Assembly: GCA_035285865.1 (NCBI GenBank)
Contig: JAYKHS010000007.1
Span: forward strand, 64,001 to 128,000
From: Candidatus Sericytochromatia bacterium
GTDB taxonomy: Bacteria > Cyanobacteriota > Sericytochromatia > S15B-MN24 > VGJW01
Direction: 5' to 3'
Length of the DNA: 64,000 nt
In this document: positions 38,599-51,166 of the stretch, one piece after another
Numbering within the stretch: position 1 is the stretch's first letter
How the letters are laid out: each line of letters opens with the position of its first letter
Made by a program: the position numbers and the translations under genes
Notes under the pieces: model-generated
Told to the model about the DNA's origin: nothing
Database searches by the model: none
The model's input: only the letters and a program-made list of their open reading frames with translations

Positions 38599-40683
38599 TC
38601 AGGGATAGCCCTCGGGCACCAACCGCGCCAGATGCCCGCCCACCTGCTCGAGGCGCGCCGAGGCCTCTTCGGCCGAAAGCCCCAGCAACCCCATCGCGGC
38701 CGCCAGGCGGACCTTACCCCCGGCCGCATCCAGCAGGCGTTCCGCTTCGGGCATGCCCTTCATCACGATCTCGTCGATGATGCGGATGGCACGGTCGCGC
38801 AATTTGCGGTTCGAGACGTTCACATCGACCATCAGGTTGCCCCATGTCTTGCCCGTGAGCACCATGATGCCGGTGGATAGGGTCCCCAACACGACCTTGG
38901 TCGCCGTGCCGGCCTTCAGGCGGGTGCTGCCCGTCAGCAATTCGGGGCCCGTGACGATCTCGATCAGGTGGTCGACCGGGGGCTTGCCCTCCGGCCATCG
39001 GCCCTCCTGCGGCACGCACGTGACGAGCGCCGTCAGCGCTCCTTGGGCACGGGCGTGGGCGAGACCGGCACGGACATAGGCAGCCCCCCCTGAAGCCGAC
39101 AGGCCGACCACGATGTCGTCCGGCCCGACGCCTGCTCCCTGCAGATCGGCCACGCCAAGTTCCCCACGGTCCTCGGCCCCTTCGACGGCACGCGTGAGCG
39201 CCGACGGACCACCGGCCATGAAGCCGAGGACGCGCTCGGGAGCCGTCGAGAACGTCGGCGGACATTCCGCCGCATCCAGCACGCCCAGTCGTCCCGAGGT
39301 ACCGGCCCCGAGGTAGATCAGCCGGCCCCCGCGCCCGAACCGCTCGGCCGCATCGGCCAGCAGGCTCGCCAAAGGCGCCCGGGCACTGCGGACGGCAGCC
39401 GTGACGCTGTCTTCCTCGGCCGCGAAGTGCTCGACGATGTCCCCGGCGGAGGCTCTGTCGAGGTAAAGCGTGCCCGGATGACGGCGCTCGGTCGGCGGCA
39501 GGTGGGGATCCAGCCTCACCCACGGCATCTCGACCAGCAAGCGCTGATAGTTGGCGCCCGGGGCAATCGTCCCGAGGATGGTGGCGCGACGGGCGCCCGT
39601 AGCCTCCGGAGCATGGTTGAGGCGACCGAGGACGGCTTCGTAGGCAAACAACGCAAAGGCCACAGCTTCGCGGGCCGCCGCCTCGGGCAACTTCTCGAGC
39701 ACGAGGCCATGCTCGGCGATGAGGGCCTTCAGGCGACGCATCAGCGTCCTGTTGCGCACGCCACCGCCGGCAACCCTGACCCGCGAGGGCCGGAACGACC
39801 GATTCGGGGGCTGCTCCATCCACTGCACCAGCCCCCGGACGACCGTCCGGGCCGTCAGTTCGGTCGCCGTGGCCAGCACGTCCTCGACCGACAGCTCCAG
39901 TTGCATGGCCCGCTCCAGAAGACGCGCGACATAGGGCTGGCCAAACGCTTCGCGTCCCGTCGACTTGGGTGGAAGCTGCCCGAAGTAGGGGTTGTCCAGC
40001 AGCGCCCCGAGCAACACCGGATGCACCTGGCCACGGGCCGCCACCGCTCCGTCCCTGTCGCAAGGCAGGTTCAGCAGTTCCTGAGCCAGGCCGTCGAGGA
40101 CCATGTTGGCCGGACCGGTATCGAAGCCCGCGGCCGGCCCCTGCCGCGGAAGCAGCGTGAGGTTCGCGATGCCGCCCAGATTGAGCAGCACCTCGTCGGC
40201 CTCTTCCGAGCCGTACAGGATCTGGTCCGAGTGGGGGACCAGCGGTGCCCCCTGACCGCCCAGCGCCAGATCGGCCACGCGAAAGTCCCCGACGGTCGTC
40301 AGCCCGGTCAAGGCCGCGATTCGCGATGGCGATCCGAGCTGCACCGAGGCCACGCCCGGCAGATGCAGCACGGTCTGGCCGTGGCTGCCCACGAGCTGGA
40401 TCGTCTCATCGGGCGTCTTGCGCCACGGCAAGGGCACATCCGCGACGGCGGTGGCAAAGGCATCGGCCACCTCCACCTCGAGGCGCGCGACCTCCTCGAG
40501 GGGCGTACCGGGGCCCACTGCCCGGATGCGCGCGCCCAGTCCCTCCGGGTAGCGGACGGTCATGTGACCTTCGACGCGATGCCGGATGCGTCCCCCCGCC
40601 GTCCAGAAGACCACCTGCGCCACGTCGATCCCGTCGGCCGACGTGCCGGACATCAACCCGAGGACCCGCATCCTGTAAGCCAT
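38599..40683 (-). CDS. anmK-murQ: Fused anhydro-MurNAc kinase / MurNAc-6-P etherase
   Basis: GLMSGTSADGID, GGQGAPLVP, FDTGPAN; then GAGTSGRLGVLDAAECPPTF, GSTRLKAGTATK, GNLMVDV. Confidence 0.92.
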   Translation of the reverse strand: MAYRMRVLGLMSGTSADGIDVAQVVFWTAGGRIRHRVEGHMTVRYPEGLGARIRAVGPGTPLEEVARLEVEVADAFATAVADVPLPWRKTPDETIQLVGSHGQTVLHLPGVASVQLGSPSRIAALTGLTTVGDFRVADLALGGQGAPLVPHSDQILYGSEEADEVLLNLGGIANLTLLPRQGPAAGFDTGPANMVLDGLAQELLNLPCDRDGAVAARGQVHPVLLGALLDNPYFGQLPPKSTGREAFGQPYVARLLERAMQLELSVEDVLATATELTARTVVRGLVQWMEQPPNRSFRPSRVRVAGGGVRNRTLMRRLKALIAEHGLVLEKLPEAAAREAVAFALFAYEAVLGRLNHAPEATGARRATILGTIAPGANYQRLLVEMPWVRLDPHLPPTERRHPGTLYLDRASAGDIVEHFAAEEDSVTAAVRSARAPLASLLADAAERFGRGGRLIYLGAGTSGRLGVLDAAECPPTFSTAPERVLGFMAGGPSALTRAVEGAEDRGELGVADLQGAGVGPDDIVVGLSASGGAAYVRAGLAHARAQGALTALVTCVPQEGRWPEGKPPVDHLIEIVTGPELLTGSTRLKAGTATKVVLGTLSTGIMVLTGKTWGNLMVDVNVSNRKLRDRAIRIIDEIVMKGMPEAERLLDAAGGKVRLAAAMGLLGLSAEEASARLEQVGGHLARLVPEGYP

Positions 40684-40691
40684 GGCCCTAG

Positions 40692-40710
40692 CATAACCTT
40701 TTCTTATCCT
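40692..40710 (+). promoter_or_regulatory. 11-bp-spaced direct repeat between anmK-murQ and the TnpB-like gene
   Basis: cataacct (40692), cttatcct (40703). Confidence 0.35.
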
Positions 40711-40796
40711 CCGCCTGCCGATTTCATGGCAAACTGAAAATGGCTCGCACCTGACCGCATCATCGCCGCCCGTTGCCGGGCCAACCCCTTTTTGCG

Positions 40797-42605
40797 ATGA
40801 GCACGCTGCGTACCTTCGACCTCGAACTGAGGCCCCTCGATCGGGCCCAGCGCGAAGGCCTGCGCCGAATCCGCACTCAGGTCGAGTCCTGGTCGGCCCT
40901 CTGGAACGAAGCCCTCGCCCCGCTCGGCTGGGTGGATCTGGCCCAGTCCGTTCGGGATGAAGGCCTCGCCCGAGCCCGCACGATGCTCGACAGCGCCCGC
41001 GCGGGTGTCGAAGCCCTGCCCGAGCCTTTCCGCGGCACGCTCCTGGGCGCCCTCAGGACCCAGTACCGGGCGCTCACGGCCGGTGTCGCGGCCACCCGGG
41101 GCGAAGCCTGGACCTGGGCCGTATTCGCACCGGGCACGTGGACGCTCGTGCCTGCCGGGGATGACACCCTGCGCCTGCACCTGCCGCTGCTGGGCCGGGA
41201 TCTGCCTGTCCACGCCCGCCTGCCCCAGGGCCTGGACACCGAGACGTTCCGGCGCCAGACGGAGGGTGCCCGCTGGCTCGAGGCGCGCATCGGCCGCAGG
41301 CAGGGCCGCTGGGTGCTGCGCATCCGTTGCCGCCTCGCTGTCCGCACGCCCGTGGGCGTGGATCTCGGCATGCGCCACCGGGCGGTTGTGGCCGATGCCG
41401 ACGGCCGACTCCTGCTCGATGCAACCGGTCGCCGTGAACGCGGCAAGGTTGCCCGGATGGAGCGCGTGATGGCCTCGATGCAGCGCAAGGGCGCCCATCG
41501 GGCCGCACGACGCCTCGCCGCCCGGCGTGACCGCTATCAGGCCAACTGCGACCTCGCGGTGGCCGGGGCGGTGGTTCGCGCCGCCAGCAAGGTCGCAACG
41601 CCGGTCCTGCATCTCGAGAACGAGGCCACCTTCGCGACCTTGCCCGACGCCATGCGTCGCCGTCTGGTCCGCACCAGCCGGGCCATTCGCCGCAGCGCCA
41701 GCCGCGCCGGCGTGCCCGTCCGCTTGCTGGACGGTCGCCAGTCCACCCATCGCTGCGAAGCGTGCGGGACCCACGTCCCCGCTTCGTCTGCCCCCCTCGT
41801 GTCCTGCCGGTGCGGTTCGCGCCCGCGGGATCTGCAAGCGTCGCGCAACCTTGCGCGTCTCGCGTCGGCACGGGTTCGCCCGTCCGGCGAAGCTCCCCGA
41901 CCGGATTCGGGGAGACAGGCCGTCGGCACGGCTGCATCCCCGCCTCCTGCCCGTTACAAGGGCGTGCAGGAGCGCGCGGGAAGGGGCACGCAAGTCCCCC
42001 ATGCCTGGATGAACAACATCCCGTCCCTTGGTGCGCCCGCAAGGCGCCAGAAGGAGAAACCCCTCATGACGACCATCGTCAAGGATCTCGGCGAGACCAC
42101 CCAGAAGCTCGTCGTCCACTCGCTCGACAACCTCAAGACCTATGTCGAGAAGACCTCCCAGGAACTGGGCGGCGTCAACCTCGTTGGCGCGACCCGGAAC
42201 GTCCTCGACACCGCGATTGACGGCGCCAAGAACGTCGTCAAGGCGGCCGAGACCCTCTCGGACGATCCCTTCACGGCCATCAAGGTCGTGGCCGATCGCT
42301 CCGTCGAGGCCACCCGGGAAGTCCTCAACACCATCGCCGAGGAAGGCCGCAAGGCCGATCTCGTCGGGGTGTCGAGCCGCATCGCGATGGAAGGGCTCAA
42401 CACCCTTCGCTCCGAAGTGGATTACGGCCTCGAGACGGGCAAGGCGCTCGTGAACCGGCTTCAGGCCTCGGCCACGCCGACCCAGCCGGTCGTGACGCGT
42501 CCGCCTCAGGTGACCCGTGTCGAGATCGAACACGAGAAGCCCGCGAGGAGCAGCGCCAAGAGCACCGAGAAGGCCGCCGCGGCTGAAAAGCCCGCCAACG
42601 CCTGA
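40797..42605 (+). CDS. TnpB/Cas12f-like RNA-guided nuclease homolog, in frame with a downstream amphipathic protein
   Basis: N-terminal RTFDLELRP..Q...LWNEAL; GVDLG (D at 41361), LHLEN (E at 41616), CEAC...CRCG, RDLQASRNL (D at 41829); no stop until 42605. Confidence 0.8.
   Translation: MSTLRTFDLELRPLDRAQREGLRRIRTQVESWSALWNEALAPLGWVDLAQSVRDEGLARARTMLDSARAGVEALPEPFRGTLLGALRTQYRALTAGVAATRGEAWTWAVFAPGTWTLVPAGDDTLRLHLPLLGRDLPVHARLPQGLDTETFRRQTEGARWLEARIGRRQGRWVLRIRCRLAVRTPVGVDLGMRHRAVVADADGRLLLDATGRRERGKVARMERVMASMQRKGAHRAARRLAARRDRYQANCDLAVAGAVVRAASKVATPVLHLENEATFATLPDAMRRRLVRTSRAIRRSASRAGVPVRLLDGRQSTHRCEACGTHVPASSAPLVSCRCGSRPRDLQASRNLARLASARVRPSGEAPRPDSGRQAVGTAASPPPARYKGVQERAGRGTQVPHAWMNNIPSLGAPARRQKEKPLMTTIVKDLGETTQKLVVHSLDNLKTYVEKTSQELGGVNLVGATRNVLDTAIDGAKNVVKAAETLSDDPFTAIKVVADRSVEATREVLNTIAEEGRKADLVGVSSRIAMEGLNTLRSEVDYGLETGKALVNRLQASATPTQPVVTRPPQVTRVEIEHEKPARSSAKSTEKAAAAEKPANA
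41880..42050 (+). ncRNA. Candidate omegaRNA/guide scaffold or structured leader
   Basis: Six consecutive hairpins right after RuvC-III, where TnpB omegaRNAs normally lie. Confidence 0.4.
42066..42605 (+). CDS. Amphipathic helical (phasin-like) protein with own RBS
   Basis: aaggag at 42051, ATG at 42066, strongly biased codons, helical V/A/K/E/T pattern, K/A-rich tail. Confidence 0.7.
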   Translation: MTTIVKDLGETTQKLVVHSLDNLKTYVEKTSQELGGVNLVGATRNVLDTAIDGAKNVVKAAETLSDDPFTAIKVVADRSVEATREVLNTIAEEGRKADLVGVSSRIAMEGLNTLRSEVDYGLETGKALVNRLQASATPTQPVVTRPPQVTRVEIEHEKPARSSAKSTEKAAAAEKPANA

Positions 42606-42617
42606 TCGACGGCTGCA

Positions 42618-42660
42618 GCCGCCGGGTCCGGACCAGTCCGGGCCCGGCGGTCCGCCTTTT
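42618..42660. terminator. Terminator stem-loop
   Basis: ccgccgggtccgga ... tccgggcccggcgg then ccgcctttt. Confidence 0.65.
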
Positions 42661-42664
42661 GAGG

Positions 42665-43318
42665 TCAGGCGAGGTCGGCGAGCGCCACCCCTGCCGCTAC
42701 GAGAACCGCATCCGGATCGGCGGTGCCATCAACCCGAACAATGCGTGCGCCATGTTCACGTGCAAGCACGGCAAAGCCTTCGCGCACCCGCTCGTGGAAA
42801 GCCACCCCGGCACCCTCGAGCCGGTCCGGACCACGCGAGGCGGCGGCGCGGCGCAGACCTTCCGCAACAGGCACATCCAGCCAGAGGGTGCGATCCGGCA
42901 CGAGCCCGGCCGTTGCCCACGCATTGACCTGCTCGACCATGGCGCGGTCGAGCCCTCGACCGAAGGCCTGGTAAGCCACCAGCGAATCGACGTGGCGATC
43001 GCAGAGCACCCACGCACCCCGCGCCAGAGCCGGACGAACCACCTCGGCCAGATGCTGGGCACGGTCTGCGCCATACAGCAACAACTCAGCCAACGGGTCC
43101 ACATCGTGCCCCGGTGCCAGCAACAACTGGCGAATCGCACCCCCAAGACCCGTTCCTCCGGGCTCGCGGGTGACGACGACCTCCCTGCCCTCGCTGCCCA
43201 GCATCTCGGCAAGCGCGCGGATGAGCGTCGTCTTGCCCGCGCCCTCCCCGCCCTCGAAGGTCACGAAACGGCCCTTGCCGCTCCGAGGCAACGGGGATAG
43301 CCGGTCCACGCCGCTCAA
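42665..43318 (-). CDS. tmk: Thymidylate kinase
   Basis: FVTFEGGEGAGKTT, TREPGGT, DRAQH, LCDRHVDS..AYQ. Confidence 0.95.
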   Translation of the reverse strand: MSGVDRLSPLPRSGKGRFVTFEGGEGAGKTTLIRALAEMLGSEGREVVVTREPGGTGLGGAIRQLLLAPGHDVDPLAELLLYGADRAQHLAEVVRPALARGAWVLCDRHVDSLVAYQAFGRGLDRAMVEQVNAWATAGLVPDRTLWLDVPVAEGLRRAAASRGPDRLEGAGVAFHERVREGFAVLAREHGARIVRVDGTADPDAVLVAAGVALADLA

Positions 43319-45420
43319 GGGACCGCTCCCGGAAGACGTGGGCGCAAGGGCGCTTCAGACGGCGACCAGACGGGCATCGGCAGCACCTGGGGCGACGACG
43401 ACGCAGGCGACGACGCAGGCGACGACGCAGGCGACGACGCAGGCGACGACGCAGGCGACGGCGCTTCCGTGGCCCCTTCCGAAACACTGCTTTCCCGCGC
43501 GCCTGGCAACACGACGGGTTCCGCATCCTGGAAGGGATCCCAGGTGGGACCAGGTGACGGCAGACCCGGTGGGGGGCTGGCCTCGGGGAAGTTCCGCACG
43601 GGCAGGCCGGAGTGCCAGTCCTTCATGACCTTGCGCCAGATGCGGGCGGCCACCCTCCCCCCGAAGGCCCCGTCCTTCATCGGTGCGCGATCGTCGTTGC
43701 CGACCCACACGGCCAGGCTGACCTGCGGCGTGAATCCTGCGAACCAGGCATCGCGGAACGCACTGGTCGTCCCCGTCTTGCCCGCGGCCGGCCGACCGAT
43801 GCCCTGGCCCTTGGCCGTGCCGCGCTCGAGGACGCCGGAGAGCACCGAGACCAGGCGGGAAACGGCATGGGGCGGGGCTACCTCGGCCCGACGGGGTGCC
43901 GGACGCTCGTCGAGGCCGCCGCCCACGACCCGCACATGCAGCTGTGGCTGGACCCACTGGCCCTTGTTGGCGAACGCCGCGTAGGCGGCCGCGAGCTCGA
44001 TGGGGTTGGTGGCTCCCGAGCCCAGTGCAAGCGTCAGGTCCCGGGGATGCGGTCCCCGCATGCCGGCCGCCTTGAGGATGGCCTCGACCGGCTGGCGCCC
44101 TACCTCGGCATAGGTCCGGACCGCCACCGTGTTGACCGACTGCTCCAACGCGGCGCGAAGCGTCAGCGCACCATAGATGCGCCCGTCGTCGTTGCGCGGC
44201 TGGTACCAGCGCCCGTTGCCGGCCGGGTAGCGCGCCGCCGCGTCCACCACCACGTCCTCCGGCGTCCGGCCGGAGGCGAAGGCCGCAAGGTAGACGAACG
44301 GCTTCATGCAACTGCCCGGCTGCAGGTTCGCCATCGTCCGGTCGTAGTCCGTCGCCCCGACGCCACCCACAAGGGCCAGCACGTGGCCCGTGCCGGGTTC
44401 GACGGCCGCCATGGCCACCTGTCTGAAGCCCATCCGGGCACCATCCGTCCGCACGGCCTCCTCGGCCGCGGCCACCGCCAACTCCTGCAACCGGGCATCC
44501 AGCGTCGTCTGGACCACAAGCCCGCCCTCCTGCACGCGCGCCGGCCCGAGACGCGCCTCGAGCACGCTCTGCAGGCGACGGCGGAACCAGCCGTGGTCAT
44601 CCCGGGGCGAACGCTTGATGCCAAGGTGCCGACGCAGACCGTGTCCATCGATCTCTCCGGCACGCCAACGGGCCACCTGTCGGGTGCGTGCCTCGCGAAC
44701 CAAACGATCCGCCTTGAGATGACCGGCATTCACCATGCGGCCAAGCACGAAACGCTGGCGATCGATGAGTCGGTCGAGTCCATCGTCCGAGAAGGGATCG
44801 TATTGTGACGGTCCCTTGAGCATGGCGACAAGCACGGCCCCTTGGCCGGGATCCAGTCGGCTCGCCGGCTTGCCGAAGTAGACCTCCGCCGCTGCGGCAA
44901 CGCCGTACGCACCCCGCCCCCACCAGACCTCGTTCAAGTAGCGTTCCAGAATCTGGTCCTTGGTCATGCCACGCGTGAGCTGGACCGTGACCATGGCCTC
45001 GCGCAACTTGCGGTCCAGGGTCTTGCGTCGGTCCTGGATCAGCGTCTTGGCCAACTGTTGCGTCAGCGTCGACCCGCCCTCCCGAGCCTCTCCCGCGAGC
45101 AGGTTCTTGAACATCGCCCTTGCGAGGCCCTTGGGATCGAAACCGACATTGCCGTAGAAGCCGGGATCCTCGGTATCGATCAAGGCCTGCCGCAGGGACT
45201 CCGGCACGTCGGCCAGAGCCACGGCGTGCTGATGGCGTTCGCCCCGGATCTCCCCGAAGACCCGACCGGCCCGATCCCGAAGGATTGAGGGGGGACCGGG
45301 AAAAGGACGCAGCAAATCGGCCAAGGTATCGGCCGCGAGGCCCGGGCGGGCCAGGACCAGCATGGCCATCGTGGCGACCACCCCGGTCAGAGCCGAACGG
45401 CTCCGTCCGAAGGACCCCAC
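43315..45420 (-). CDS. Class A penicillin-binding protein (PBP1A family)
   Basis: GGSTLTQQLAK, RKLRE, YLNEV; QPGSCMK, SVN and KTGTT motifs. Confidence 0.92.
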   Translation of the reverse strand: MGSFGRSRSALTGVVATMAMLVLARPGLAADTLADLLRPFPGPPSILRDRAGRVFGEIRGERHQHAVALADVPESLRQALIDTEDPGFYGNVGFDPKGLARAMFKNLLAGEAREGGSTLTQQLAKTLIQDRRKTLDRKLREAMVTVQLTRGMTKDQILERYLNEVWWGRGAYGVAAAAEVYFGKPASRLDPGQGAVLVAMLKGPSQYDPFSDDGLDRLIDRQRFVLGRMVNAGHLKADRLVREARTRQVARWRAGEIDGHGLRRHLGIKRSPRDDHGWFRRRLQSVLEARLGPARVQEGGLVVQTTLDARLQELAVAAAEEAVRTDGARMGFRQVAMAAVEPGTGHVLALVGGVGATDYDRTMANLQPGSCMKPFVYLAAFASGRTPEDVVVDAAARYPAGNGRWYQPRNDDGRIYGALTLRAALEQSVNTVAVRTYAEVGRQPVEAILKAAGMRGPHPRDLTLALGSGATNPIELAAAYAAFANKGQWVQPQLHVRVVGGGLDERPAPRRAEVAPPHAVSRLVSVLSGVLERGTAKGQGIGRPAAGKTGTTSAFRDAWFAGFTPQVSLAVWVGNDDRAPMKDGAFGGRVAARIWRKVMKDWHSGLPVRNFPEASPPPGLPSPGPTWDPFQDAEPVVLPGARESSVSEGATEAPSPASSPASSPASSPASSPASSSPQVLPMPVWSPSEAPLRPRLPGAVP
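43397..43456. repeat. Five perfect 12-bp tandem repeats (gacgacgcaggc) encoding PASS in the PBP tail
   Basis: Directly visible. Confidence 0.95.
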
Positions 45421-45421
45421 C

Positions 45422-46960
<1,539 letters not shown>

Positions 46961-47947
46961 CTACCGGGCCTCCAGGGGTTCGAGGGCAGAGGCCACCAGC
47001 TTGCGGGCGCGGGAAAGGCCTTCGGACATGCCTGCGTTCGGGTCGCCGAGCCCGCGGATGTCGCGAACCAGACGGCGGGCAAAGCTGCCGATGGCCACGC
47101 CGGCAAGGCCCAGCCCCATCTCGCGGGCCAGCTTGCCCGTGAGATCGTTGGTCCCGCCGGCCACCTGGACATGCGGCACTCCCGCCGCCATGAGGGCCTC
47201 GGCAAAGGTCAGCGCCGGCCGGGTCGAAGCCTCGCCGGCCGTACCGCTGATGGGCTTGCCGTCCGCCTGCAGGAGCAGGGGCCCGTCCACCCACCGGGAG
47301 GCCGTCCGCCACGCCCCGACAGCCTGGTCGACCGTCATCTGCACCGCGTTGACCGACAACGAGAAGACTCCGCCCTTGGCCGTCCAGGCCCGGACCTGCC
47401 CCTCATAGGCCTCGAGTCCTGCACCGGTCCCGGCATGGAGCTCGAGCGCTCGGGCGCCGGCATCCCACAAGTCATCCAGTGCGGCAGGAGGCGCCGCGGG
47501 CACCATCTGCACGGCCTCTTCCGGGCAGGCCGCCACGCACTGGCCGCAGCCGACGCAGCGCTGGGCCACGATCTTGAACTGAGCGTCGATGGCGCCGTGG
47601 GGACAGGCATTGAGGCAGTGCGGGCACTCCCAGGTGCAGCGCGCGTCGATCTTCTCGGCAATCTGCACATGCGGGTCGTCCTCGGGACCGATGGACACCA
47701 TCACGAGCGGCACGGGGGCCTGCGGCAGCCAGGCCGAACCGAGGCGTCGGGCCCGGCGGACGCCCGACAACGCGGCGTCCACGGCGTCGGGGCGCGCGGC
47801 GACGTCCACGAGGCGTGCACCGGCCAGCGTGAAGATGGTCGCGAGGTGCGCGAGTTCGGAGGTGTCCTCGAAGGTGGCTCCGCACACCAGCTTGAAGTAC
47901 GGTCCCTCCGCGACGAGTGGCTGTATGAGCTTGGACAGCGTGGTCAT
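46961..47947 (-). CDS. ldpA: LdpA-like 4Fe-4S protein
   Basis: FKLVCGA, DVAARP, EDDPH, CPHCLNACP and CVGCGQCVAACP, QADGKPISG, QVAGGTN. Confidence 0.8.
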   Translation of the reverse strand: MTTLSKLIQPLVAEGPYFKLVCGATFEDTSELAHLATIFTLAGARLVDVAARPDAVDAALSGVRRARRLGSAWLPQAPVPLVMVSIGPEDDPHVQIAEKIDARCTWECPHCLNACPHGAIDAQFKIVAQRCVGCGQCVAACPEEAVQMVPAAPPAALDDLWDAGARALELHAGTGAGLEAYEGQVRAWTAKGGVFSLSVNAVQMTVDQAVGAWRTASRWVDGPLLLQADGKPISGTAGEASTRPALTFAEALMAAGVPHVQVAGGTNDLTGKLAREMGLGLAGVAIGSFARRLVRDIRGLGDPNAGMSEGLSRARKLVASALEPLEAR

Positions 47948-48055: not shown

Positions 48056-49036
48056 ATGTCCGCACCCGAAACCCTGCTCGGCATCGACCTTGGAGGCACC
48101 AAAGTCCACCTACGCCTCGCGGGCCCGCAGGGCGTGGTGCTCGATCGGCGCCTGCCCACGGCGGATCATCCGGATCTCGAGACGCTGGTGCTGTCGGCCC
48201 TGGGGGACAGGATGCCCGACGCCACGGCCGTCGGCATCGCCGGCCCCGTTCAGGGCGATCGGGCCCACGTCACCAATGTGGGCTGGAACATCGAAGCCGG
48301 TACACTTGCCCGGGCCCTCGGCGGCGGCAAGGTCGTGCTGGCGAACGACATGGCCATCGTGGCCCATGGGCTGGCGACCCTGCGGGCGGAAGAAACGATC
48401 GTCCTGCAGGAAGGGAGCCGCGAGGAGCGTGGCCCGATCCTGATCGTCGGGGTCGGCACGGGCATGGGGACCGGCCTGCTGGTGCCGGAACTGGGCGGAG
48501 CGGCCGATCGCTATCTCGCCGGCGAGGGCGGGCACGCGACGTGGGCACCCCGGACGGAGGAAGATCGGGAATTGCAGGCCTGGCTGGCGGAACGCCATGG
48601 GCATGTGTCGCTCGAGCGCGTGGTTTCGGGAACGGGCCTCGCCACCGCCGCACAGTGGGCCGACGGTTCGGGAAGACCGCTGGCCGAGGGCGTCCGCGAG
48701 GCACTCGCGTCGGGCGAGGGGGTTGCCGCCGCCGTCGTGGCCGCGGCCGAATCCGGCACGTGTCCGACGAGCGCGGGCATCCTCGGGCGCTTCGTCTCGA
48801 CGCTGGGAGCAGCCATCGGCAACGCCGCCCTGACTACCCTGCCGACCGGCGGCATCTTCCTCGCCGGCGGAGTCGCCCAGAAGCTGGCCGGGCATCTGGG
48901 CCAAGGCAGCCTCTTCCTCGAGAGCATGCGGGACAAGGGGAGGATGCGAGGCCTTGTCGCCGGCCTCCACGTCGCGGTGGTCAAGGCCGAGGACGTCGCC
49001 ATCCGTGGGGCGCTGGCGCTCGCTGCCCGGGCCTGA
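48056..49036 (+). CDS. glk: Glucokinase
   Basis: GIDLGGTK, GIAGPV, ND, GVGTGMG, GEGGH, ERVVSG, FLAGGVA. Confidence 0.9.
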   Translation: MSAPETLLGIDLGGTKVHLRLAGPQGVVLDRRLPTADHPDLETLVLSALGDRMPDATAVGIAGPVQGDRAHVTNVGWNIEAGTLARALGGGKVVLANDMAIVAHGLATLRAEETIVLQEGSREERGPILIVGVGTGMGTGLLVPELGGAADRYLAGEGGHATWAPRTEEDRELQAWLAERHGHVSLERVVSGTGLATAAQWADGSGRPLAEGVREALASGEGVAAAVVAAAESGTCPTSAGILGRFVSTLGAAIGNAALTTLPTGGIFLAGGVAQKLAGHLGQGSLFLESMRDKGRMRGLVAGLHVAVVKAEDVAIRGALALAARA

Positions 49037-49073
49037 ATCGAGGGCACTCCGCTCCGGGCGGTATACTTGGGTC

Positions 49074-50027
49074 ATGCGCGGGTTCCCGGCGGTGTGCGCG
49101 GCCATCCTCGCGATCTTCCTCGCCGGACCGCGCACGGGCCCCGTCGCGCCCGTACCTGCTGCCGAGGCCCAGGTGCTGTACTGCGCCTACTGCGGCCGGC
49201 AGATCGAGGGGCGATACCTGCAGGACCAGGGCCGTGCCTACCACCCGAAGTGCGCCGCCCAGGTCGCCCCGCGCTGCGTCATCTGCACCAAGCCGATCCT
49301 GACCAGCGCGCGCGTGGACATCTGGGGCTTCCACGCCCATTCCGACCACGGCTGGGACATCGACTGGTGCACCTATTGCGGGCGCATCATCGGCCAAGCC
49401 AGCACCGGTGGCGGAGTGACCTACACCGATGGCCGGGCGGTCTGCAACCTTTGCCGCAAGACGGCCATCGACACGCCTGAAGCCGGTGCGCGGGTAATGG
49501 CCCGGGTGCGCAAGCGCTTGGTCGAATGGGGTATCGTGCTGGACTACCCGCCCATCCCGCTGCAAGTGGGGATGAAACCATGGTTGCGGCAGGTCCAGGG
49601 GCAGGGCAGCAGGCACATCGGGGAGACGGCCGAGGGCCTGATGGAGGCCGAAGTGACACAACGGGTAAAGAGGGGAAAGGGCCTCGGCCGGCGGGTGGTC
49701 CTGTCCATCTACGCACTGTCCGGCATGCCCGAGGAGAAATTCGCCAGCGTCATGGGCCACGAACTGATGCACGCGTGGGGCTATCTGGCCGGCAGCCAGC
49801 GGCGACATCCCCAGCTCGAGGAGGGAGCGGCCAGCTATGTCGAAGCCCTCATCCTCGCCGAGGCACGAAGCCCTGAGGGGGCCAAGCGACTCGAAATGAT
49901 CCAGAACGAGCGCGATTACACCTACGGCACGGGCTTCCGCCGGGTCAGGCGCTTCGTCGAGACTCGGGGATGGACCGCCCTGCTGGACGTCCTCAGAACG
50001 CAGGAGGATCTGCCGCCCGGCTATTAG
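49074..50027 (+). CDS. DA1-like LIM/Zn-finger metallopeptidase, copy 1
   Basis: CAYC..HPKC, CVIC, CTYC, CNLC; GHELMHAW...EEG. Confidence 0.8.
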   Translation: MRGFPAVCAAILAIFLAGPRTGPVAPVPAAEAQVLYCAYCGRQIEGRYLQDQGRAYHPKCAAQVAPRCVICTKPILTSARVDIWGFHAHSDHGWDIDWCTYCGRIIGQASTGGGVTYTDGRAVCNLCRKTAIDTPEAGARVMARVRKRLVEWGIVLDYPPIPLQVGMKPWLRQVQGQGSRHIGETAEGLMEAEVTQRVKRGKGLGRRVVLSIYALSGMPEEKFASVMGHELMHAWGYLAGSQRRHPQLEEGAASYVEALILAEARSPEGAKRLEMIQNERDYTYGTGFRRVRRFVETRGWTALLDVLRTQEDLPPGY

Positions 50028-50200
50028 CCGGTGGGTCGTCGGACTCTCCCTGCTGCTGGGCCGGACCCTGCCGTCCGTCAGCACCTTGCGGGCCAAGGGC
50101 CGCATGGAGGGCCTCGTCGCCGGGCTGCATGTCGCCGTGGCCATGGCAGAGGATGTCGCCGCGCGTGCCCAGGGCGGCCAGGAGCGTGCCGGGCGGGTAT
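50028..50200 (+). pseudogene. Duplication scar: TolC 5' fragment joined to glk 3' fragment
   Basis: 50024-50085 resembles 51163-51270; 50086-50170 resembles 48926-49030. Confidence 0.8.
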
Positions 50201-50209
50201 CCTTGGATC

Positions 50210-51166
50210 ATGCTCAGGGTCTTACTCGTGGGGTTGGCCATCCTCGCGACGATGTTCGGCGGCCCGCGCACGGGCCCCGTCGCGCCCATCCCTGCTGCCG
50301 AGGCCCAGGTGCTGTACTGCGCCTACTGCGGCCGGCAGATCGAGGGGCGATACCTGCAGGACCAGGGCCGTGCCTACCACCAGGCGTGCTACGCCGGCAA
50401 CGTCGCCCCGCGCTGTGCCGTCTGCAGCCAGCCGGTCCTGACCAGCTCGCGCGTGGACCGCTGGGGCTTCCACGCGCATGTCGCCCACGGCTCGGCCATC
50501 AACCTCTGCAGCTATTGCGGGCGCATCATCGGCCAGGCCAGCACCGGGGGCGGCGTGGCCTACACCGATGGCCGGCCGGTCTGCAACCTTTGCCGCAAGA
50601 CGGCCATCGACACGCCTGAAGCCGGTGTGCGGGTGATGGCCCGGGTGCGCAAGCGCTTGGCCGAATGGGGGGTCGTGCTGGACTACCCGCTCATCCCGCT
50701 GCAACTGGGGATGAAACCGTGGCTGCAGCAGGTCCAGCGGCAAGGCAGCTTTGCCTTCGGGGGGGAGACCGTAGGCCTGACGCGGGCCGTCGTGAGTCAA
50801 CGGGTACGAGGCCGGGAGATCCTCGACCGGCGGGTCGACCTGTCCATCTACGCGCTGGCCGGCCTGCCCGAGGAAGTCTTCGCCAGCGTCATGGGCCACG
50901 AACTGATGCACGCGTGGGGCCATCTGGCCGGCAGCCAGCGGCGACAGCCCCAGCTCGAGGAGGGAGCGGCCCGCTACGTCGAGGCCGTCATCCTTGCCGA
51001 GGCAGGCAGCCCCGAGGGGGCCAAGCGACTCGAGATGATCCATTATGATGACGATCCCACCTACGGCAGGGGCTTCCGCCGGGTAAGGCGCTTCGTCGAG
51101 ACCCGGGGATGGACCGCCCTGCTGGAAATCCTCAGAACGCAGCATGATCTTCCGCCCGGCTATTAG
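50210..51166 (+). CDS. DA1-like LIM/Zn-finger metallopeptidase, copy 2
   Basis: Close paralog of 49074-50027 with the same Cys pairs and HELMH. Confidence 0.8.
   Translation: MLRVLLVGLAILATMFGGPRTGPVAPIPAAEAQVLYCAYCGRQIEGRYLQDQGRAYHQACYAGNVAPRCAVCSQPVLTSSRVDRWGFHAHVAHGSAINLCSYCGRIIGQASTGGGVAYTDGRPVCNLCRKTAIDTPEAGVRVMARVRKRLAEWGVVLDYPLIPLQLGMKPWLQQVQRQGSFAFGGETVGLTRAVVSQRVRGREILDRRVDLSIYALAGLPEEVFASVMGHELMHAWGHLAGSQRRQPQLEEGAARYVEAVILAEAGSPEGAKRLEMIHYDDDPTYGRGFRRVRRFVETRGWTALLEILRTQHDLPPGY

Follow-up and report, generated by a model that had tools for sequence, protein, structure and literature searches.

A TnpB derivative fused in frame through its RNA scaffold to a host gene in Sericytochromatia, with a possible cis-acting role on the partner mRNA

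In the window, by which we mean the whole 64,000-nucleotide stretch of a Candidatus Sericytochromatia contig analyzed here, a TnpB derivative, a linker encoding a structured RNA and a partner protein share one open reading frame, and the tnpB-RNA-partner fusion was in frame in all 24 loci examined (Table 1). The scaffold RNA at 41893–42007 is, judged from sequence, a domesticated IS200/IS605 TnpB omegaRNA scaffold. It seems to form the structured front end of a host-gene mRNA instead of a DNA guide, and we assign a probability of about 0.55 to a reading in which the TnpB derivative acts in cis as a ribonucleoprotein (RNP), binding the scaffold in its own transcript, trimming it and tuning the partner mRNA.

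Table 1 Coordinates of features at the tnpB-RNA-partner locus (positions in the window)
Feature	Position	Strand	Remarks
Open frame of 602 aa: tnpB derivative, RNA-encoding linker and partner	40797..42605	+	stop-free throughout
TnpB-derived part (WED, REC, RuvC, zinc ribbon)	40797..41879	+	profile matches, structure model, dN/dS
RNA contig starts from three studies; possible processed 5' end	41869..41887	+	41869, 41871, 41887; weak hint
H1 of omegaRNA scaffold	41893..41914	+	compensatory change in 8/8 pairs
H2	41918..41933	+	5/5 stem pairs invariant in 20/20 orthologs
Pseudoknot 1 (PK1), canonical element-end pairing	H2 loop 41925-41928 with 42002-42005	+
H3	41938..41980	+	7/7 scored stem pairs covary
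Pseudoknot 2 (PK2)	H3 loop AAGGG 41958-41962 with 42025-42029	+
H4, stem of variable length	41983..42000	+	2/3 basal pairs covary
Transposon right-end equivalent, scaffold 3' boundary	42002..42007	+	divergence point of mobile copies; G017 motif
Former guide slot, 17 nt (19 nt from 42006)	42008..42024	+	hairpin 5 in the window's genus
CCCTT strand	42025..42029	+	pairs with H3 loop (PK2) or, in the window's genus, with AAGG of the Shine-Dalgarno sequence
Hairpin 6, genus-specific	42033..42047	+	within the anti-SD/SD helix
Shine-Dalgarno (SD) sequence 42050-42056 and internal ATG 42066 of partner	42050..42068	+
Partner, 179-aa four-helix protein	42066..42605	+	own SD and ATG
Strong hairpin after partner stop, probable terminator	42618..42652	+	z −3.73

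Reading frame, TnpB-derived protein and partner

The preliminary description had placed the RNA in a linker between TnpB and its partner. A single stop-free frame spans ATG 40797 to 42605, and the region is therefore neither intergenic nor a gap between two open reading frames. Across the 24 loci, stops were absent from the actual frame and present in 37 of 48 shifted frames. Linker segments fell into two, five and six length classes, and all ten length changes were multiples of three (~2 × 10−5 if independent); together with the missing stops, this indicates that the reading frame has been kept by selection. We infer that the fusion protein is made. Public databases contain fused proteins of 587–623 aa. 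Within the window's genus, linker dS was 0.03–0.12 compared to 0.48–1.08 for tnpB, and linker dN/dS was 0.87–3.1, such that the nucleotides rather than the peptide appear constrained there. Four pairs in family f3 had linker dN/dS of 0.16–0.23, and some constraint on the peptide is therefore possible in those pairs. The linker peptide had been thought to be unstructured, in agreement with residues 354–436, which were modelled at pLDDT <50. An omegaRNA obliged to remain an open reading frame as well is unusual in itself.

Pfam and NCBIfam matches to the TnpB part were below cut-off, and its structure model matched Cas12f/TnpB structures. Domain names follow the secondary structure of the model and the general architecture of TnpB. 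The RuvC residues were present in the window (D 41361, E 41616 and D 41829), and inspected translations showed the D-E-D triad in 16 of the 18 carrier genomes. RuvC motifs were lost in G002 and G008 only, and both kept the RNA, indicating that cleavage is dispensable. REC helices were deleted in G006 and in genus g8, with loss of the REC lobe at least twice, and the N-terminal half was absent in G008 and P0010; RNA motif and frame persisted despite the REC, RuvC or N-terminal losses. With dN/dS of 0.13–0.37 in all 12 close pairs, and 0.27 in the RuvC-dead G002, the TnpB part is by this measure under purifying selection. We saw no purine-rich SD in the sequence upstream of ATG 40797.

The partner occurred in all 27 genomes of the order and in none of 14 other genomes of the class, and it stands alone in family f4. 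It is phasin-like as a lead only. Like phasins (Phasin_2, PF09361), it is small, amphipathic-looking and all-helical with a low-complexity tail, and Atlas leads pointed to a Phasin_2 cluster (0.89 and 0.86). Unlike them, it matched no Pfam or NCBIfam family at cut-off, with Phasin_2 reaching one of 17 family members at E 0.057, below the Pfam cut-off. PhaC was found in 20 of the 27 genomes of the order but in none of three in genus g8, which has the partner. The fold model of the partner was of low confidence (pLDDT 49.6).

Fold, origin and distribution of the scaffold RNA

All six stems previously described were present, and all six appeared in the minimum free energy fold of 41880–42060 (−88.1 kcal/mol), in which the register of stem 2 was one pair shorter. 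Folding of this segment was stronger than that of dinucleotide shuffles (z −2.97; 1 of 200 shuffles as good), and z-scores of the scaffold in 11 lineage representatives ranged from −0.7 to −4.7, with eight below −2. Covariation was assessed in an alignment of 20 orthologs (A2; L041 and L042 were omitted as duplicates of G003 and G004, and L044 and L046–L048 lie outside it). The 32-pair structure, including two pseudoknots that were added by inspection, was paired in 96.6% of cells, and 18 of the 32 pairs changed on both sides. Covariation was 0.41 compared to 0.12 in shuffled alignments (0 of 500 as high) and at most 0.10 when the structure was slid, though these controls overstate the contrast because the structure was derived from the same alignment and the sequences are related.

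Support differed among helices. Since the H2 pairs are invariant, they carry no information for or against pairing. PK1 was pairable in all 20 orthologs (100%), with three invariant pairs, one pair with G-U variants and no compensatory change within the family, and PK2 was 99% paired with a single compensatory change (L009). An alternative helix, 41934–41937 with 42001–42004, was rejected as a poorer fit (pairable 0.8–1.0) than PK1 (1.0). H4 occurred in five length classes, all in frame. Two members of the six-hairpin element first proposed, hairpins 5 and 6, occur in no genus but that of the window, where hairpin 5 is altered in G002. The proposal had also overlooked that the slot is fixed, that the fusion is conserved in frame and that two pseudoknots form part of the structure. 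No Rfam family reached gathering score in the window or in five other loci, and searches of six ortholog loci by E-value gave three weak matches, all outside the scaffold RNA, which matched no known riboswitch or Rfam covariance model.

The position of the RNA is that expected of a TnpB omegaRNA: it begins 64 nt after the RuvC-III Asp codon, and the distance from RuvC-III to H2 was 87 nt in all 22 loci with the RuvC-III motif. Mobile TnpBs retrieved together with P0012, the closest stand-alone TnpB relative, and two from G016 had the same stem order as the scaffold, and in mobile relatives the H2 loop is complementary to the element end, matching PK1. Three copies of a Pontibacillus element diverge directly after the end motif, and G017 (L005) retains the ancestral end motif, which together place the scaffold end at 42007 and the 17-nt former guide directly after it. 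The alignment of H1–H2 to the Pontibacillus element beat shuffles at ≤0.05 in five of ten lineages, with 0 of 1000 shuffles as good for G006 and 0.40 for the window, whose own lineage is not significant. Covariance model R1 gave no significant match in the omegaRNA regions of 15 mobile loci, such that homology rests on topology, position and partial H1–H2 likeness. The earlier term "guide scaffold" is accordingly borne out by topology and H1–H2 likeness to the mobile TnpB element, but not by the covariance model, which misses mobile omegaRNAs. The P0012 locus was sought in viral contigs and not found there. A −10-like hexamer lies in the H1 loop of a mobile element (L095:1790–1815) and of several domesticated copies, including L011; mobile omegaRNAs may be transcribed from it as an internal promoter.

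Among 151 genomes of the phylum, the RNA covariance model had a single match in each of 18, all in families f1–f3, and none in eight genomes of f4, which have the partner without tnpB; R1 likewise detected nothing upstream of the eight f4 partner genes. No match was found in G007, which is 86% complete and has its partner cut at a contig end. Of 41 genomes, 17 had one copy of a TnpB ortholog with a long open frame, and G008 had a reduced form. Scanning 185,579 species genomes for the motif gave 15 matches, 14 of them in Sericytochromatia-type records; the match at L086 was discarded as a chance match within a topoisomerase-like frame. A divergent anmK lay upstream in all 17 loci compared (L001–L017). 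In the window (38599–40683, − strand), anmK and a MurQ/GKRP-like SIS protein make up one 694-aa fusion, encoded divergently to the tnpB derivative. Fused TnpBs formed one clade of 13 among 56 rows in a quick tree (SH-aLRT 100), in which the window's genus had a long branch. No Y1 transposase was found in G000–G003, and one occurred elsewhere in the genome in 11 of 27 genomes of the order. These patterns demonstrate vertical single-copy inheritance of the locus, which is immobile and tied to a non-transposon gene, as TldR loci are. An IS200/IS605 tnpB element would have landed once, just upstream of the host gene, in the ancestor of three Sericytochromatia families, where tnpB would have been domesticated together with its omegaRNA. 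Many genomes of the order gave two full-length matches to recA.

Guide slot, transcript and translation of the partner

The spacing from the slot to the PK2 strand was constant in all 24 loci by motif position, with a one-base register ambiguity in L033, and PK2 is predicted to clamp a fixed 17-nt guide slot. Slot sequence was conserved within genera and variable between them. Rather than being drawn from the variable flank of a mobile multi-copy element, the slot is part of a single-copy locus in fixed synteny. Target searches covered 16 of the 18 carrier genomes (all but G002 and G026; 64–100% complete) and found no conserved DNA target of the slot and no conserved promoter or 5' UTR match with a TAM. 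No target had been spotted by eye either. In G000, none of the exact matches of at least 13 nt started at the slot, and mismatch scans gave as many matches as shuffled controls. Scanning viral sequences with the 17-mer gave one match compared to three for the reversed control.

One perfect 17/17 match to the G011 slot lies inside a sensor histidine kinase gene (L215; G011:C32:51864), where we estimate ~5 × 10−4 such matches per genome before multiple testing. As a target, the site was rejected: it is not conserved in the G009 ortholog (72% identity), where the sequence does not follow the guide of G009 either. A g13 match common to three genomes was also rejected, being inside a permease coding sequence with counts equal to control, and other slot matches common to several genomes fell within coding regions of orthologs. 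One-mismatch seed matches exceeded the reversed control in G019, G021, G013, G001 and G003; those viewed in context (108 of 165) were mostly in long open reading frames, without a common flank. DNA targeting by the TnpB derivative looks dispensable on these comparisons.

Ten RNA runs from seven studies contain part of the locus, and four of these runs were examined; they were chosen because they contain this stretch, and their contigs give no start, strand or level. In X1, a single contig covered 41887–42577 (one difference, 99.9% identical to the window, adapter at both ends), and in X2 a single contig covered 41869–42572 (six differences, 99.1%), while contigs began at 41871 in X3 and 42061 in X4. 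The tnpB part was without RNA contig cover, which we do not take as proof of low expression. No sigma-70-like promoter was found in 40600–42800. Hairpins like the one after the partner stop occurred in orthologs too; a terminator scan missed that of the window because its T-run is short. At L046 (796–1500), an otherwise unrelated AT-rich contig contains a GC-rich piece that starts at the H1 3' arm and ends just beyond the partner stop. The assembly is probably chimeric, but the piece marks out the RNA-plus-partner unit also seen in the RNA contigs. The proposal that the scaffold doubles as the 5' leader of the partner gene is hinted at by the RNA contigs and accords with the in-frame SD-ATG conserved in all 24 loci.

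The distance from GGAG to ATG was the same in 23 of 24 loci. The pairings of CCCTT with the H3 loop and with the SD are mutually exclusive. SD pairing in the window was 0.60 compared to 0.13 for shuffled sequences, one of 200 of which reached this value, and the anti-SD in f3 is part of the slot itself. Among 11 lineages, SD masking was above the shuffled mean in nine, at ≤0.05 in three, and below the mean in two (L008 and L009), and in f3 models blocking PK2 alone barely freed the SD. Masking of the ribosome site as a gate on partner translation is plausible and modestly supported by these models; RNP binding, suggested earlier as the gate, may act on the same step.

Competing readings and comparison with known systems

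In the cis-acting reading, the fusion protein would arise from a weakly translated long mRNA, its TnpB moiety would bind the scaffold within its own transcript, and an intact RuvC would cut ~10–25 nt upstream of H1, as in mobile TnpBs. The cut would destroy the tnpB message, a negative feedback, and leave an RNP-capped mRNA of ~750 nt from which the partner alone would be translated. AmaTnpB provides a precedent in RuvC-dependent trimming of the 5' side of its omegaRNA with the 3' flank uncut, according to the available text of PMC10278001, and trimming of this type would yield exactly an RNA-plus-partner mRNA at this locus. The old guide would no longer be used on DNA, its 3' side being locked by PK2 or paired with the partner SD; we propose that scaffold occupancy would therefore set the stability and initiation of the partner mRNA. 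More speculatively, the fused partner half might tie the regulator to a structure built by the partner, and the regulator would in that way sense its own product. A more general formulation, in which a TnpB without DNA targeting has become a post-transcriptional regulator with a leader operator, RuvC maturation, an anti-Shine-Dalgarno guide and read-through fusion with its target, is more tentative, at a little under even odds.

We consider it unlikely that the protein is still an RNA-guided DNA binder, acting as a TldR-like repressor or short-pairing nuclease through the 17-nt guide on a target missed by our searches, with the partner as effector or anchor. The fixed length of the slot and its conservation within and variation between genera agree with such a role, as do the D-E-D triad in 16 of 18 carriers, the REC lobe kept by most lineages, the perfect match in the G011 sensor-kinase gene and the excess of one-mismatch seed matches in five genomes. 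Against it, the G011 site is lost in the G009 ortholog and the other common matches lie in coding regions, counts in G000 and in viral sequences did not exceed their controls, REC has been lost repeatedly, and the slot is taken up by a hairpin in the window's genus and by SD pairing in f3.

The scaffold might alternatively be a cis-regulatory leader independent of TnpB, a stabiliser or small-ligand switch that a host RNase or an internal promoter would generate, with TnpB kept for another job. Loss of RuvC, zinc ribbon or N-terminal half from the protein leaves the RNA core unchanged, several lineages have an H1 loop that looks like a −10 hexamer, and the two alternative CCCTT pairings resemble an expression platform. 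This explanation is nevertheless improbable, given that the RNA is absent from all eight f4 genomes with the partner but without tnpB, that the 87-nt distance from RuvC-III to H2 is fixed in 22 of 22 loci, and that no Rfam riboswitch matched; the −10-like loop, moreover, is common to the mobile element, and the RNA contigs of the window begin upstream of it. A decaying transposon relic, with frame and structure incidental, would fit the progressive domain loss in several lineages and the long branch of the window's genus, but is largely refuted by purifying selection in every pair, including G002, by covariation and by a frame maintained through ten length changes. Comparative sequence data thus demonstrate selection on the TnpB protein, the RNA structure and the reading frame, and the cis-acting reading remains the one we prefer.

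Among known systems, the IS200/IS605 TnpB-omegaRNA (AmaTnpB; L095–L100) shares with this locus the H1–H4 scaffold after RuvC-III, the pairing of the H2 loop with the element end and the protein fold; the part of PMC10278001 available describes four stem-loops in a 106-nt scaffold for AmaTnpB, compared to ~115 nt here. The locus differs in being single-copy at a fixed site beside anmK with no target found, in a frame that runs without a stop through the RNA into a host gene, and in the second pseudoknot after the slot. TldRs, as covered in the accessible portion of the preprint (bioRxiv 10.1101/2023.11.30.569447), are defined by loss of at least two D-E-D residues and have guides matching conserved promoters, and they retain TAM recognition according to the portion available of 10.64898/2026.09.22.753285. 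From these sources, both systems have a TnpB derivative that does not move, followed by a conserved RNA and accompanied by a stable partner gene. The differences are that the D-E-D triad is mostly intact here (the window has not lost two or more of its residues) and REC is the part lost, that no promoter target was found, and that the partner, here part of a fusion, follows the RNA.

Non-mobile, catalytically intact TnpBs (RHH/MazE-, PrimPol- and GATase-TnpB and short halobacterial forms) appear in the main text of PMC10691335; they too are immobile with an intact active site, and some consist of WED plus RuvC only. Reduced forms are thought there unlikely to bind RNA, whereas no part of the present locus is more conserved than the RNA. 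Fusion through an omegaRNA was not found among them in that text, whose supplements may list these proteins. Our literature search found no description of a tnpB-RNA-partner system, although the supplementary datasets of PMC10691335 and the TldR work may list the proteins, and it found no paper linking Sericytochromatia and TnpB. TnpB exaptations in the literature found, as far as the sources available go, have either kept RNA-guided DNA recognition (Cas12, TldR, sigma-linked dCas12f) or are of unknown function. The clade, whose hosts are non-photosynthetic relatives of cyanobacteria, suggests a third path, along which DNA recognition is given up while mRNA processing and the interaction of protein with scaffold survive. 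In its natural deletion alleles (REC-less and RuvC-dead), RNA binding can be told apart from RNA processing and from DNA targeting, and the locus would amount to a compact protein-RNA switch that could be rebuilt in E. coli.

Several other features were seen downstream of the locus. A ~15-nt tandem repeat at 43376–43460 encodes SPASS repeats at the C-terminus of a penicillin-binding protein. At 45422–47947 (− strand), a gene for an LdpA-like Fe-S protein adjoins one for an AAA-R3H protein in this Sericytochromatia-type genome; the pair is familiar from photosynthetic cyanobacteria. Two tandem paralogs at 48954–51166 (+ strand) have repeated CxxC motifs and an HExxH motif and look LIM/DA1-peptidase-like by eye.
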